The notes beneath the pieces were generated by a model. It did no database searches and was not told where the DNA came from. It worked only from the letters and a program-made list of their open reading frames with translations. Shown one piece after another: positions 3,481 through 63,400 of a stretch of 64,000 nt of DNA. Origin of the DNA: Eledone cirrhosa (lineage: Eukaryota); assembly GCA_964016885.1 (NCBI GenBank), contig OZ024749.1, positions 35,836,001 to 35,900,000 on the forward strand, given 5' to 3'. The number at the start of each line of letters is the position of its first letter. Within the stretch, counting starts at the first letter, position 1. Position numbers and translations under genes: made by a program.

Positions 3481-3615
3481 ATGTGTGTGTGTATGTGTGT
3501 GTTTGTGTTATGTATATGCATATATATATATATCATCATCATCATCATCATTTTACGTCCGCTTTTCCCTGCTTGCAAGGGTATATACTTATATATATAT
3601 ATATACATATATATA

Positions 3616-5039: not shown

Positions 5040-5111
5040 ACATAACATCATTTTACGTCCGCTTTTCCCTGCTTGCAAGCAGGGAAAAGCGGACATAAAA
5101 TGATAATGATG

Positions 5112-5980: not shown

Positions 5981-6046
5981 TATTTTATTATACATATTTC
6001 AAGGGCCACCAAGGCAAATTATGGTGCGCCTTCATCAGATAAAATA
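5981..6046 (-). ncRNA. Type I hammerhead ribozyme motif (Penelope-like element type)
   Basis: Minus strand reads TATTTTAT-CTGATGA-AGGCGCACCA(loop)TGGTGGCCCTT-GAAA-TATGTA-TA-ATAAAATA. It has an intact CUGAUGA/GAAA core, an 8-bp stem I, a stem II, a self-complementary stem III (AUAUGUAU with G-U pairs) and an AUA cleavage triplet. Confidence 0.75.
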
Positions 6047-6300
6047 CAATACAGATTTGTTTTATAAATAAATATTGACATACCCTGAAAAAAGACAACC
6101 TTAACGGTTGGAGCTTCCTGGATAGTGCTTTATATCAGTTATAAAAATGTTTAAGCTTGTTGAATCCCAACAAATTAAATATAACCTCTGCATATATATA
6201 TATATATATAATGGAAAAATTTGAACAGGGACAAAACAGAGAGGCAGTACAACGAATGTTTATTAATTTCACACTCTGGAGAGTGAGGTGTTGGTGGGGG

Positions 6301-6334
6301 ACGACGTTTCGGGCATAAGCCCTTCCTCAGGTGA
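6301..6334 (-). ncRNA. Minimal hammerhead-like motif in a probable Penelope pLTR remnant
   Basis: Minus strand: CTGAGGA-A-GGGC-TTAT-GCCC-GAAA-CG-TC. Core, stem II and ACGT palindromic stem III are present, but stem I is only 2 bp. AATAAA and a (TA)n tract follow on the same strand. Confidence 0.55.
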
Positions 6335-6695
6335 GAAGTGTGTGGGAACAGAGTTCAAAGGGTGTGTAGGGGAGTGGTGGAGAGACATATAGCGAAAGGA
6401 AACGGTGCGAATGAAAAAAATATAAAAATAAAAATAAAAATAAAATTAAAGCATGTGTGTATGTGGGTGTGTTTGCTTGTTTGTATATATATATATCCTG
6501 TTATTACTTAAGAGAGGTCTGACGAACCTTTGATTCCAGAGTTGGGCCAGACCGATACAGATCGAACCTTGAGCTGATCAATAGCAAAATGTGTCACCAA
6601 TCAATAAACGTAATGAAGGCTTAACCAATTCTCCTTGTATCATTATTATTATTATTATATATAAATAAAGGAAACATTATTATTATATATATATA

Positions 6696-7038
6696 ATGTC
6701 AATGTGCGTGAACGACCAAGAATAGACGAGTTGAGAAAGAAACTGGGTATAAGAGGGATAAATTGTGGTGTGCAGGAGAGAAGGCTGAGATGGTATGGAC
6801 ATGTGATACGCATGGAGGATGACGGCTGGGTAAAGAAGTGCCAAGAAATGCCAGAAGAAGGAAGACACAGTAGAGGTAGATCACGTAAAACATGAGCAGA
6901 GGTGGTGAGAGCAGACCTCAAATTGCTGAAACTCACCGAGGAGATGACGAAGGACCGTGGCAAGTGGAGAGATGATGTGTTGAATAGGATCCGTCCAGCC
7001 CTTGCAAGCAGGGAAAAGCAGACGTAAAATGATGATGA

Positions 7039-7040
<2 letters not shown>
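6696..7040 (+). mobile_element. RTE-clade LINE 3' fragment
   Basis: ERRLRWYGHVIRMEDDGWVKKC...GRSRKT*AEVVRADL is typical of an RTE ORF C-terminus. In-frame stop and (ATG)n tail. Confidence 0.9.
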
Positions 7041-12769: not shown

Positions 12770-13117
12770 TCATCATTTCATTTCATCATTTCATTTTACG
12801 TCCGCTTTTTCCCTGCTTGCAAGGGTGGGACGGGAACTGATTCTGGCTTGATTTCTACAGCTGGATGCCCTTCTTAACACCAACCTCATTTACAGTGAGT
12901 GCTGGATGCTTTTTTGCCGTGGCACCTCCACGACCACTTTACAGTGGAATGATAGGGACCCCAGTCCCTATCATCTCATTTCTACAGCTGAGTAAACTGG
13001 AGCAATGTGAAATAAAGTGTCTTGCTCAAGGAAACAACACATCACTCGGTCTGAGAATTGAACTCACAACCTTTTGATTGCAAGGCCAATGCTCTAACCA
13101 CTAAGCCATGTGCCTCC
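12770..13117 (-). mobile_element. tRNA-derived CORE-like SINE family B with RTE-type 3' tail
   Basis: Minus strand: head GGAGGCACATGGCTTAGTGGTTAGAGC...GAGTTCAATTC, CORE-like TCCTTGAGCAAGACACTTTATTTCAC, tail CCCTTGCAAGCAGGGAAAAAGCGGACGTAAAATGA matching the RTE end near 7000. Confidence 0.85.
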
Positions 13118-15172: not shown

Positions 15173-15269
15173 CAGGATGTCCCAAAAAATGTACACACAC
15201 TTGATTAGTACAGCCAATATTTATTAGAATGCTGATGAAGTGTGTATACACTTTTGGGGGGACAACCTG
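15173..15269. mobile_element. Tiny Tc1/mariner-like MITE
   Basis: About 30-bp imperfect TIRs CAGGATGTCCCAAAAAATGTACACACACTT / AAGTGTGTATACACTTTTGGGGGGACAACCTG in a TA context. Confidence 0.7.
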
Positions 15270-23508: not shown

Positions 23509-23785
23509 CTAGGGCGGGTAAAATTCCCGAGATCCATGGACGAGTTCTCTCCAGCGGTCTCTGTCCCTCATTATCGCTGCTATGTCCTGCGTCTCCAACA
23601 GACCAGTGTCTGTCCTTAGGGCATCAACATACGTTAACCTTGGTCTTCCTCTTCCAGTGTGTCCTGTCCATGTAGGGGCTCCCACAGGAGCACTGAGTGC
23701 AATGTCAACTCTGGATGTCGGTGAGCATGTCCAGCTAACCTCAGTCTCCTCTGTGTCACTTTTGAGCTGACTTTTGTCATATATA
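23509..23785 (-). mobile_element. RTE/RTE-X LINE 3' fragment (frameshifted)
   Basis: RRLRLAGHAHRHPEL...LLWEP in one frame and GRGRPRLTYVDALRTDTG...MRDRDRWR in another. Confidence 0.88.
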
Positions 23786-23824
23786 TTATGTGAGAAAAAC
23801 CACAAACCCTCCATCTCAATTCTA

Positions 23825-23860
23825 CTTTTGAAAAGCATAAGAACTGTGAAACCGGTAAAG
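23825..23860 (+). ncRNA. Decayed hammerhead ribozyme motif
   Basis: CTT-TTGAAAA-GCA-TAAGAAC-TGT-GAAA-CCGG-TA-AAG. The core differs from CTGAAGA by two transitions. ACCGGT palindromic stem III and a 3-bp stem I are present, followed by AATAAA and (TA)n. Confidence 0.45.
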
Positions 23861-24193
23861 GAAACAAATAAATATTCTTAAAAAGACTCCAGTTGCATTT
23901 TCGATTTCTTTTCCTTATATATATAATATATATACATATACATACATATATATCAAGGGCGGTGCCCCAGCATGGCCTCAGCTGGATGGCTGGAACAGGT
24001 AAAAGAGTATATATATATATATAGATATAGATAGGTAAATATACACGGGTGTGTATGATTGTGTATAGAAGATTATATTAATAAGAGGAATTCCAACTTT
24101 GTCTGATTTACTCGTTTTATTTACAATCCTTTAAAATATATAATGGTATTATAATGAAATAGTATGGTAGAATATTAAATTCTAAGTGTTAAT

Positions 24194-24232
24194 TGAACAA
24201 GTACTTTCATGCTTTCGCAATCTTCAGGTTCA
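24194..24232 (-). ncRNA. Type I hammerhead ribozyme motif (mirror copy)
   Basis: Minus strand: TGAAC-CTGAAGA-TTGC-GAAA-GCAT-GAAA-GTAC-TT-GTTCA. Stem II is capped by a GNRA (GAAA) loop in this copy. Confidence 0.7.
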
Positions 24233-24305
24233 TGATATGTGGTGACAGTCGAGTTTGCAATTTTCAACAGTTGAAAATTGCAAACTCAACTGTCACCACA
24301 TATCA

Positions 24306-24344
24306 TGAACCTGAAGATTGCGAACGCATGAAAGTACTTGTTCA
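24306..24344 (+). ncRNA. Type I hammerhead ribozyme motif
   Basis: TGAAC-CTGAAGA-TTGC-GAAC-GCAT-GAAA-GTAC-TT-GTTCA. Perfect 5-bp stem I, short stem II, palindromic stem III AGTACT, CUU cleavage triplet. Confidence 0.7.
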
Positions 24345-24456
24345 ATTAACACTTAGAATTTAATATTCTACCATACTATTTCATTATAATACCATTATAT
24401 ATTTTAAAGGATTGTAAATAAAACGAGTAAATCAGACAAAGTTGGAATTCCTCTTA

Positions 24457-24520
<64 letters not shown>

Positions 24521-24530
24521 CACACACACA

Positions 24531-24606
24531 CAGGGTGTCCTAAAAAATGTATACACACTTCAACAGAATTCTAATCAAAGTGTGTATACATTTTTGGGAC
24601 ACCTTA
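24531..24606. mobile_element. Tiny Tc1/mariner-like MITE (same family)
   Basis: CAGGGTGTCCTAAAAAATGTATACACACTT ... AAGTGTGTATACATTTTTGGGACACCTT. Confidence 0.75.
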
Positions 24607-40403: not shown

Positions 40404-40824
40404 AGTGGCTGCCAACTCATTTTCGAGTACGGCCACTACTTTATATCCATGTAGGAGAACCCCTACCGATGCGCTGAACGAATGTGACTTTTTAGTCCAG
40501 CCAGCGACTTGAAAACTCTGGTACAAACACTACACTTGTGACAATTATTGACACATAGTGCTGGGCCCATGGTACTTGTGATGACAAGTGCAGAGAGATC
40601 TCCAGATATAAAGCAATGCCTGTGCCGTGAAGCTTTTATAGTGAGCAAAAGCACTGCACAAAGCCAGTCCCACTCTCTTAACCAAGATGATATTTACCAA
40701 AAAGAACAAGTCAACATCATTGGATACCATCAGAGTTGCAGGTGTTATATCAGAGTTTTCCTTCTCCTAGATTTCTGCCTTGACAAAGGCTAAGGGGTCA
40801 TCTCTCCCAGTGATTTTGGATGGT
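40404..40824 (-). mobile_element. Short RTE-derived element retaining a C2H2 zinc finger, embedded in (TACA)n
   Basis: CSVCTRVFKSLAGLKSHIRSAHR*, then a 3' hairpin GTGGC...GCCAC and a (TATG)n tail. The 5' part contains CTAGGAGAAGGAAAACTCTGA, resembling RTE 5' UTRs. Confidence 0.6.
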
Positions 40825-53770: not shown

Positions 53771-54246
53771 TGTGTTATTAATACATGACTGTGTTATGTA
53801 TTGAGTTAAGTGAAGCAATGCTGGTAAGTAATTCCCAGCTATGGTACATCAATCAATATACAAACACTAAATAAAATGACTGAGACTAGAAAGGAATGAA
53901 TTCATTTATGTAATATTCTGTTGATTACATATATTGATTAGGGAGCTATTAGCCAGGAATCACTTATCAATCAGTTATAAGTAATTGATACACTGTCATT
54001 GTCATTTCTGGGTAAATATTTGAGATATTTGAACAGTGAAATATGTGCTTATATATATGCATTTATATGTATGTATATCTGTATATATCAGTATATATAT
54101 ATGTATATATATATATATATATGTAGGAGGTGAGTTTTATTGTAGCACAATAAAGCAATGCAAATATCGGATAAGAAGCACTCTACAGTTTGTAGGACTG
54201 GAGTATAAATAATATAAGCTCAAAAGATGGTTAAAAGAGTTCCATG

Positions 54247-54317
54247 TATTTTATTATGCGCATTTCAAAAACAAATATCATCATGGGATGATATTTGCGT
54301 TCTCATCAGATAAAATA
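54247..54317 (-). ncRNA. Type I hammerhead ribozyme motif (mirror copy)
   Basis: Reverse complement of 54404-54474 with one substitution at the base of stem II. Confidence 0.8.
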
Positions 54318-54403
54318 GGGAGACATGATATGAAGCTTAAAAAACACTTGCGAGCAGTGACGTGTTGATTTAAGTGTTTTTTAAGCTTCATATCATGTCT
54401 CCC

Positions 54404-54474
54404 TATTTTATCTGATGAGAACTCAAATATCATCCCATGATGATATTTGTTTTTGAAATGCGCATAATAAAATA
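54404..54474 (+). ncRNA. Type I hammerhead ribozyme motif
   Basis: TATTTTAT-CTGATGA-GAACT-CAAATATCATC-CCAT-GATGATATTTG-TTTTT-GAAA-TGCGCA-TA-ATAAAATA. 8-bp stem I, perfect 11-bp helix in stem II, palindromic stem III ATGCGCAT. Confidence 0.8.
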
Positions 54475-54502
54475 CATGGAACTCTTTTAACCATTTTTTG
54501 AT

Positions 54503-54583
<81 letters not shown>

Positions 54584-57510: not shown

Positions 57511-58046
57511 TTGTGTTTACTCTGCAGTATGTGTGTATATATATGTCTGTTAACTCTGTAGTATGAGCGTATATATATATATATATATATATGTTTTTAC
57601 TCTATTGTATGTGTGTATACATGTGTCTATTAACTCTACAGTACATATGTCTATACACATATATATATATATGTGTGTGTGTTTACTCTATTGTATATGT
57701 CATATACTTTTTATGTATGTGTGTGTGTTGTATATGTGTGTATATGTTTGTTGAGGTGTGAATTAGTGTGTATGTGTGGTTGTATGTATGTATGTATATG
57801 TAAGTGTATATATGTGTATGACTGTATATATGTGTATGTGGGAGTGTACATATATGTATGTAAGTGTGTATATGTAAGTGTGTACATGTAAATGAGAGTA
57901 TGTAAATGTGTATATGGCAGCAGCAACAATAACAACAACAGCAGTGTAGAAATGAAATAAAATGAAATCCACAGTTCACAACAATGTAGTTTTAGTTGGC
58001 TTCCTAGTAATTTACATCTCATAAGATATGGGGCCCTGGTCCTAAA

Positions 58047-58552
58047 ATGTTGTTACGGTTCACACCTATATAGATTAAGCTGGTCTCCTACAAGGTTGTA
58101 CCTGATAGGAGGTTTCTTGGGTATTTTGATGATAGGGGTCACAGTCGTTTCATGTTGTTATGGTTCACACCTATATAGATTAAGCTGGTCTCCTACAAGG
58201 TTGTACCTGATAGGAGGTTTCTTGGGTATTTTGATGATAGGGGTCACAGTCGTTTCATGTTGTTATGGTTCACACCTATATAGATTAAGCTGGTCTCCTA
58301 CAAGGTTGTACCTGATAGGAGGTTTCTTGGGTATTTTGATGATAGGGGTCACAGTCGTTTCATGTTGTTATGGTTCACACCTATATAGATTAAGCTGGTC
58401 TCCTACAAGGTTGTACCTGATAGGAGGTTTCTTGGGTATTTTGATGATAGGGGTCACAGTCGTTTCATGTTGTTACGGTTCCCACCTATGTAGTTTAACT
58501 GGCCTCCTACAAGATTGCAAATCAGAAGGTTTCTTGGGTATTTTAATGGTAG
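58047..58552. repeat. 105-bp tandem repeat, about 4.7 copies
   Basis: Near-identical units, reflected as a 35-aa repeat in the ORF track. Confidence 0.95.
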
Positions 58553-58556
58553 GAAA

Positions 58557-59285
58557 CACCACCACCACCACCACCACCATCATCACAGTCACCACCACCA
58601 CTGCCACCAACACTACCATCACCACCACCACCACCACCACCAACACCACCACAGTCACTCCCACCACCTCCATAACACCATCACTGTCACTATTATCACT
58701 ATTATCACCATCACCACAGTCACCACCACCTCTGCCACCAACACTACCATCACCACCACCACCACCACCACCACCACCACCACCACCACAGTCACTCCCA
58801 CCACCTCCATAACACCATCACTGTCACTATTATTACTATTATCACCATCACCACAGTCACCACCACCTCTGCCACCAACACTACCATCACCACCACCACC
58901 ACCACCACCACAGTCACTTCCGCCACCTCCATAACACCATCACTGTCACTATTATCACCACCACCACAGTCACCACCACCTCTGCCACCAACACTACCAT
59001 CACCATCACCACCACCACCACCACCACCACAGTCACTCCCACCACCTCCATAACACCATCACTGTCACTATTATCACCACCACCACCTCTGCCACCAACA
59101 CTACCATCACCACCACCACCACCACCACCACCACCACCACCACCACAGTCACTCCCACCACCTCCATAACACCATCACTGTCACTATTATCACCACCACC
59201 ACAGTCACCACCACCTCTGCCACCAACACTACCATCACCACCACCACCACCGTCACTTCCACCACCTCCACCACCACTATCACCA
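58557..59285. repeat. (CAC)n-rich repeat with higher-order structure
   Basis: Recurring CTCCATAACACCATCACTGTCACTATTA anchor. Confidence 0.9.

Positions 59286-62937: not shown

Positions 62938-63400
<463 letters not shown>

Follow-up and report, generated by a model that had tools for sequence, protein, structure and literature searches.

The highest-scoring near-spacerless palindrome of the window analysed here, a stretch of 64,000 nucleotides of animal DNA that is AT-rich and rich in microsatellites, reaches from 24074 to 24464. Its 391 bases form two 195-bp arms (24074–24268, reading outward to the left on the minus strand, and 24270–24464 on the plus strand) around a single central base, A24269. 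The arms differ in 2 of 195 pairs (24250/24288 and 24213/24325), a divergence of 1%, and pairing collapses sharply from pair 196; the inverted-repeat comparison confirmed the arm length, the 1-nt centre and the two mismatches given in the original prediction. An RNA copy of the whole palindrome is 98% paired in the predicted fold. On the right, the palindrome borders on a (TA)n(TG)n microsatellite (24465–24520), in agreement with the earlier statement that its ends lie at TA. This does not hold for the left end at 24074, because read depth continues outward from there in all four public runs (see below): the element runs approximately 40 nt further (24073 to about 24034), up to a degenerate (TA)n run at 24008–24033 in which no target-site duplication is readable.

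Each arm carries one outward-facing minimal type I hammerhead of 39 nt, as had been noted before and was borne out by a descriptor scan (24306–24344 on the plus strand and 24194–24232 on the minus strand). The core CUGANGA/GAAA/NUH with stems I and II is present in both arms; stem I is the 5-bp UGAAC/GUUCA, stem II has 3 bp, and stem III consists of the palindromic AGUACU. The core positions, 24311(+) and 24227(−), confirm the outward polarity of the ribozymes, and the predicted CUU cleavage sites (after 24339 on the plus strand and at 24199 on the minus strand) are 140 bp apart on opposite strands. One arm mismatch alters the stem II loop, which is GAAC in the right and GAAA in the left motif, and all other parts of both cores are intact, again as described originally. 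Five matches to the strict descriptor were found in the window, whereas 100 block shuffles averaged 0.01. The pair G10.1–C11.1, which is usually conserved and lies outside the published hammerhead descriptor, is absent and replaced by U.U at 10.1–11.1 in both arms; this would reduce the expected ribozyme activity, but leaves the reading of the origin given below untouched. As monomers, the motifs are predicted to fold no better than shuffled sequences (z = 0.26 and −0.28). A double hammerhead of two RNAs joined through the palindromic stem III has predicted energies of −14.8 and −16.4 kcal/mol, in a duplex that contains two extra pairs at the cleavage site. Published minimal hammerheads cleave weakly and only as dimers (PMC4209133; for dimer cleavage, Lunse 2017, as cited in PMC6765202). 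The two arm motifs cannot act as a cis pair or cis dimer, since they sit on opposite strands. Rfam gave no match at gathering score anywhere in the window, and among the 72 matches obtained at E ≤ 10 for 23700–24600 there was no hammerhead family; these matches, for instance to miRNA models, are driven by the hairpin and were rejected, all being under gathering score. One of them, mir-6302, covers the centre of the palindrome (24231–24307; 46.6 bits versus a gathering score of 90) and includes a short run of letter identity besides the hairpin, which is probably due to chance.

The nature of the arms became apparent from public sequence reads. Four runs were placed at 85% likeness on 23780–24290, a stretch that takes in the left flank and the whole left arm and reaches 21 bases into the right one. 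X1, X5 and X11 derive from organism A (three samples, two studies) and X4 from organism B; X1 may be the source sample of the window, while X11 consists of raw reads from a separate study, and the runs X6–X10, with their small share, were not counted as evidence. The parts of the read tables listed comprise 40 of 109 letter rows, 15 of 28 joints, 24 of 595 loose ends and 24 of 9366 pieces. In X1, 6728 contigs fall on the stretch and the summed arm depth amounts to 3e5–1e6, versus approximately 5–50 for single listed contigs, a sum that indicates a large family rather than a copy number. In these reads, the arm proves to be the 3′ terminus of a high-copy family of repeats. At 24138, 24181, 24182, 24234 and 24251 (among the 40 of 109 letter rows listed), both arms have the letter that is in the minority in X1, so they stem from one source. 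Both arm mismatches probably arose afterwards in the right arm, through a CpG transition at 24288 and the change at 24325: the X4 loose-end consensus has the left-arm letter at 24250 (among the 24 of 595 loose ends listed), and no majority variant at 24213 occurs among the 40 of 109 letter rows listed.

This family has two 3′ ends, one at the end of the arm and one at the end of a tail of about 40 nt. Loose ends running into (TA)n at 24074 are found in at least 33 X1 and at least 29 X4 contigs, and the right arm likewise passes into (TA)n without a tail. Depth in the bin 24050–24067 still amounts to 55% (X1), 88% (X4), 63% (X5) and 97% (X11) of that in the next arm bin, and contigs of X4 and X5 that start at 24047–24057 cross 24074. 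Since depth and contigs continue past this point, the left flank carries the tail of the element (24034–24073, minus strand), of which 27 nt are seen in contigs and the full length of about 40 nt, up to the TA run, is inferred from the sequence. Within the tail, a 6-bp stem-loop with an AC-rich loop (ACCC) is predicted at 24041–24056 on the minus strand (−5.1 kcal/mol, z = −3.98), a stability reached by 2 of 200 shuffles. Tails of 30–40 bp at one end only have been described for Penelope-like elements (PMC3846280; PMC8557442), and in vitro the tail corresponds to two start sites of reverse transcription at an AC-rich stem-loop (PMC11167929).

At the centre, the arms meet head to head in AC-A-GT (24267–24271). 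The family extends upstream past 24268, where 8 X1 contigs leave the palindrome with other letters (agreement 0.71; among the 24 of 595 loose ends listed). The centre is thus the 5′ joint of two copies, as the family continues beyond it. On the plus strand this upstream continuation, taken from the loose-end consensus behind 24268 and compared by eye, matches 24267–24269. Judging from these letters, the central A is likely templated, with an overlap of 2 nt between the arms. The family has further joints between opposite strands in X4 (24137/24180, 24216/24268 and 24235/24286, one contig each, among the 15 of 28 joints listed). Depth in X1 is 254,288 at 24265, 58,792 at 24269 and 28,950 at 24276. 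According to a simple k-mer model, a single locus at depth 5–50 would yield at most 85–850 at 24276, and the ratio between 24276 and 24269 is 0.49, versus 0.55 predicted for words that span the centre. Of 83 raw X11 reads at 24265, 23 are still present at 24276, and depth in this run falls after the mirrored AATT site at 24276–24279, as expected for centre-spanning molecules. Moreover, one X5 contig spans 24204–24282 with 6 differences and no gap, including 13 letters to the right of the centre. None of the listed reads bridges the centre of this locus by 31 letters on each side, the compared stretch having 21 bases to its right. In organism B, depth at the centre is about 1% of that of the arm. 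These depths, which may include some ordinary reads that run upstream and were extended beyond the centre, suggest that hundreds or more copies share the exact centre. The strong instability which the original prediction expected of such palindromes is at odds with a centre that recurs in many copies and in other individuals, and that also occurs in a second organism, though at low depth. In the accessible literature (subscription papers, Repbase entries and supplements aside), no prior description of a fixed, shared joint was found beyond the palindromes at pLTR 5′ ends in the accessible text of PMC3846280.

The palindrome is not the only structure of its kind in the window. A relaxed scan yielded seven hammerhead-like motifs (shuffle mean 0.22), of which three are solo (23828, 6038 and 6330), and hammerheads and palindromes are hence coupled only in part. 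A second palindrome at 54122–54509 has 138-bp arms, a 22-nt spacer and 3 mismatches, as well as a 90-nt stretch before the TA run on its left side only, which is a candidate long tail. A comparison by blastn (word size 7, E ≤ 1) detected no match between its arms and those at 24 kb, as the original prediction had claimed; the further claim that both share the same geometry must be weakened to similarity, given the different arms, spacer and mismatches and the left-hand stretch. Directly to the left of the 24-kb palindrome, a second high-copy family occupies 23788–23913 on the plus strand. It contains a U3-A8 hammerhead variant at 23828, whose stem II is re-established by the letters in the majority at 23838 and 23847. 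Many copies of this family start at 23788 after (TA)n, and a perfect opposite-strand joint at this position is present in at least 6 X1 contigs and in 25 X11 reads from 2 starts. Head-to-head pairs need no ribozyme, since a spacerless 29-bp pair at 5047–5104, made from a LINE-like 3′ end and located in a TA run, has no hammerhead; its halves join at the natural 8-bp palindrome of the element, further copies of which lie at 3547–3581, 6901–7040, 12783–12833 and 62944–62993. The solo hammerhead at 5981–6046 (minus strand) agrees with the family at 54 kb in its 8-bp stem I and in the 15 nt that lead to the core, differs in stem II, and has a pyrimidine tract with a terminal CAG 46 nt before the core. 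A further solo minimal hammerhead at approximately 6300–6335 (minus strand) combines a 4-bp stem II, an ACGU palindrome and a 2-bp stem I, followed by AATAAA, and is likely another Penelope-type end.

Taken by its anatomy, the 24-kb palindrome is very probably a Penelope-type end pair. Four structural features would place it among the Penelope-like elements: a hammerhead with palindromic stem III, an inverted 5′-truncated pair, a tail on just one side, and insertion into (TA)n. None of the 150 frames searched with Pfam, out of 229 in the window, matched RT or GIY-YIG, genes that a truncated end is not expected to carry. A stop-free frame extends across the arm end and tail and has neither ATG nor homolog; its 40 residues gave nine candidates in a protein search, none at E ≤ 10. 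The ATG at stem II (24328) opens 11 codons only, and an intron or decay could conceal an ORF start in the arm. Pattern scans for a longer family copy produced no match in viral, metagenome and GTDB contigs.

Close parallels exist in other animals. Adineta vaga Pen2, Pen2a and Pen3a also comprise a head-to-head inverted 5′-truncated copy with a palindrome at the joint, and the 195-bp arm falls within the range of Adineta pLTRs (193–218 bp; PMC3846280). The inverted pLTR structures of endonuclease-bearing PLEs, in the scheme of PMC8557442, likewise have an arm of about 200 bp, a tail of 30–40 bp at one end only, and an AT-rich or microsatellite target. In contrast to these published structures, the palindrome lacks an ORF or direct pLTR between its arms and consists of the inverted pair alone, and its joint is apparently common to many copies. 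Penelope of D. virilis commonly has inverted terminal repeats (PMC2377424), and Penelope elements are abundant in coleoid genomes (PMC8967140). Dual hammerheads 100–700 bp apart on opposite strands were reported from Schistosoma mansoni in 2014 and tied to truncated elements (PMC4209133); the accessible text of that study gives no account of them as palindromes. The PLE hammerheads of S. mansoni resemble those described here in that stem I is short (5 bp), stem III is small and palindromic, and dimers are predicted to be required. Differences to the metazoan PLE hammerheads of the same source are the 3-bp stem II closed by U.U instead of G10.1–C11.1, and the CUU site. The Poseidon element PAc of Anolis carolinensis (PMC11167929) shares the two 3′ ends around an AC-rich stem-loop tail and the AT-rich target, and as a further likeness it copies an uncleaved hammerhead. 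Its ORF, however, starts at stem II, where the ATG of the arm yields the 11 codons mentioned above, and its short end lies about 85–92 nt past the cut, compared to 125 nt past the predicted cut here. Animal non-LTR retrozymes (bioRxiv 10.64898/2026.07.22.740005) are similarly short, non-coding and pLTR-related and carry a type I hammerhead. Assignment to this class was rejected, as it requires head-to-tail tandem units with their hammerheads on the same strand and the window holds two copies only, in inverted orientation. A MITE or DNA-transposon derivative with symmetric terminal inverted repeats does not fit the asymmetric tail, the upstream continuation and the variable joints. The recurrent mechanism that the original prediction proposed for the two palindromes is supported, but it is not new: it corresponds to the inverted 5′-truncated pLTR pairs of Penelope-like elements (PMC3846280; PMC8557442; PMC4209133).

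On this basis we consider it likely that the palindrome represents two head-to-head 3′ ends of one high-copy family in a (TA)n run, left by a single insertion of a Penelope-like element, or a non-autonomous derivative, that was reduced to an inverted pLTR pair. Given a Penelope-type end pair, priming from both target ends is the route to which we lean slightly. The RT-endonuclease would cut both strands of an AT-rich target, and cDNA would be primed from both broken ends with uncleaved RNA of one source gene as template. One cDNA, beginning at the distal start site, would comprise arm and tail, and the other, beginning at the proximal site, the arm only; both would halt at a preferred point approximately 40 nt upstream of the hammerhead core and then join via the 2-nt overlap. 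The Poseidon protein is able to cut and extend both strands, is predicted to dimerize, starts reverse transcription at two sites, and inserts without the need for hammerhead cleavage (PMC11167929). The joining step has not been demonstrated for any Penelope element in the literature cited, and PMC3846280, in its accessible text, favours self-priming. With two-ended priming, the arms would be expected to match and only one of them to carry a tail; the outward polarity would be explained as well, since the ribozymes follow the orientation of the element's 3′ ends. The arms of a single insertion begin identical, and their 99% likeness therefore makes the ongoing homogenisation suggested in the original prediction superfluous; the recent origin suggested along with it is plausible at 1% divergence, and no date is assigned here. 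The hammerheads themselves may best be regarded as passengers carried in the repeat end, since there is one sense copy per strand and read-through RNA would pair the sense with the antisense copy.

The same product could have arisen if one cDNA had folded back at its 3′ end and copied itself into a hairpin, with the tail dropped on one side during resolution. Matched arms are explained equally well by this route and by two-ended priming, and the shared subfamily alleles of both arms, the 2-nt overlap at the joint, the LINE-like pair joined at its natural 8-bp palindrome (5047–5104) and the self-priming proposed for Adineta Penelopes (PMC3846280) all agree with it. Folding back would nevertheless require a precise stop or cut at 24074, exactly where many family copies end and where a second priming event explains the short arm directly, and a 2-bp stem with a 1-nt loop would make a poor primer. 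We regard this origin as possible but rather unlikely overall, and as a somewhat stronger contender once a Penelope-type end pair is granted. Alternatively, the palindromic unit might be mobile as a whole, in a non-autonomous, MITE-like fashion, its centre inherited from one founder. The X1 depth of 28,950 at 24276, more than 30 times the 850 modelled for one locus at depth 50, the X11 reads that persist from 24265 to 24276 (23 of 83) and the ungapped X5 contig across the centre would all be expected from such spread. Two of the other joints in the family, however, have one side at 24267–24268, which points to a fixed 5′ stop rather than to one founder; in addition, the family runs on upstream in 8 contigs, the RNA of the unit would be a hairpin with 98% of its bases paired, and the centre in organism B has only about 1% of the arm depth. 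Spread of the whole unit is therefore improbable.

Selection for a functional two-ribozyme device, in which transcription would diverge from the centre or the hammerheads would define the ends of a hairpin RNA, is very unlikely, even though the cores as well as stems I and III are undamaged in both arms and the one mismatch within the motifs lies in a loop. With so few differences (2 in 195 pairs), the cores would be expected to stay intact even if no selection acted. Motifs of this type show weak cleavage, and that as dimers only (PMC4209133), a read-through RNA would contain one sense ribozyme in fully paired form, and the same window holds solo hammerheads as well as a head-to-head pair free of them. 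Finally, the palindrome could be an assembly or library artefact originating from a fold-back chimeric read, an origin for which the original prediction had allowed. The listed reads include none that proves the exact locus over its full length, and the window may itself derive from X1. Against this stand the two arm mismatches, the unlike flanks and the tail on a single arm, which self-copying could not produce, as well as the fact that the centre recurs in further samples, including one from a separate study (X5 and X11), and in organism B; the X11 depth drop after the mirrored AATT site also fits centre-spanning molecules. Because the centre is common to many copies, a read artefact is disfavoured, and we deem it extremely unlikely. 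The palindrome is an expected product of Penelope-like insertion, with no sign of a new ribozyme system.

An unusual lead is the joint itself, which appears to be common to many copies. The hammerhead core is separated from the 5′ end or joint by 41 nt at 24270, 40 nt at 54372 (right arm of the 54-kb palindrome; 62 nt if the spacer is assigned to that strand) and 40 nt at 23788, a coincidence that was noticed after the fact in three unrelated families. It is conceivable, although doubtful, that Penelope-type cDNA synthesis has a fixed 5′ stop approximately 40 nt upstream of the core in unrelated families, for which the ribozyme fold, a start site or a splice site would serve as the ruler. The palindrome would then be remade hundreds to thousands of times in each genome, or would spread as a non-autonomous unit of palindromic form. 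The solo motifs at 6038 and 6330 run counter to such a rule, each being 154 nt from the nearest upstream microsatellite, and some X4 joints fall away from the 40-nt position. With regard to a splice acceptor at the joint, the letters upstream of the arm family resemble a pyrimidine tract ending in AG, whereas those of the 23788 family do not. A shared 40-nt spacing between joint and core is not described in the accessible literature (subscription papers, Repbase entries and supplements aside).

How tandem and inverted PLE ends are formed is still called an open question (PMC8557442; PMC11167929). Many ORF-less inverted pairs, whose joint is apparently fixed and whose tail is visible on one side, offer a test case, in which two-ended priming and fold-back can be told apart by allele counts in paired arms. 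A fixed stop at about 40 nt, if true, would extend this to a genome-scale test of how inverted Penelope structures form. If transcribed, inverted pairs may also supply long hairpin RNA directed against their own family.

Some further features of the window were recorded. A small element bearing terminal inverted repeats (TIRs), which we take to be Tc1/mariner-like, lies immediately to the right of the palindrome (24533–24605) and has a related copy at 15175–15258; the short interspersed repeats of the window are, we presume, octopus-like. From 25290 to beyond 27000, an 82-bp tandem satellite with 97% matches follows, in a region that is strongly C-rich on the plus strand out to approximately 32 kb. 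Pfam matches in the window consist of one C2H2 zinc-finger match above the cut-off and one FAM70 match, in the frames 40466–40693 (minus strand) and 57961–58809 (plus strand); the FAM70 match covers a short stretch of a 283-residue frame and may be compositional.
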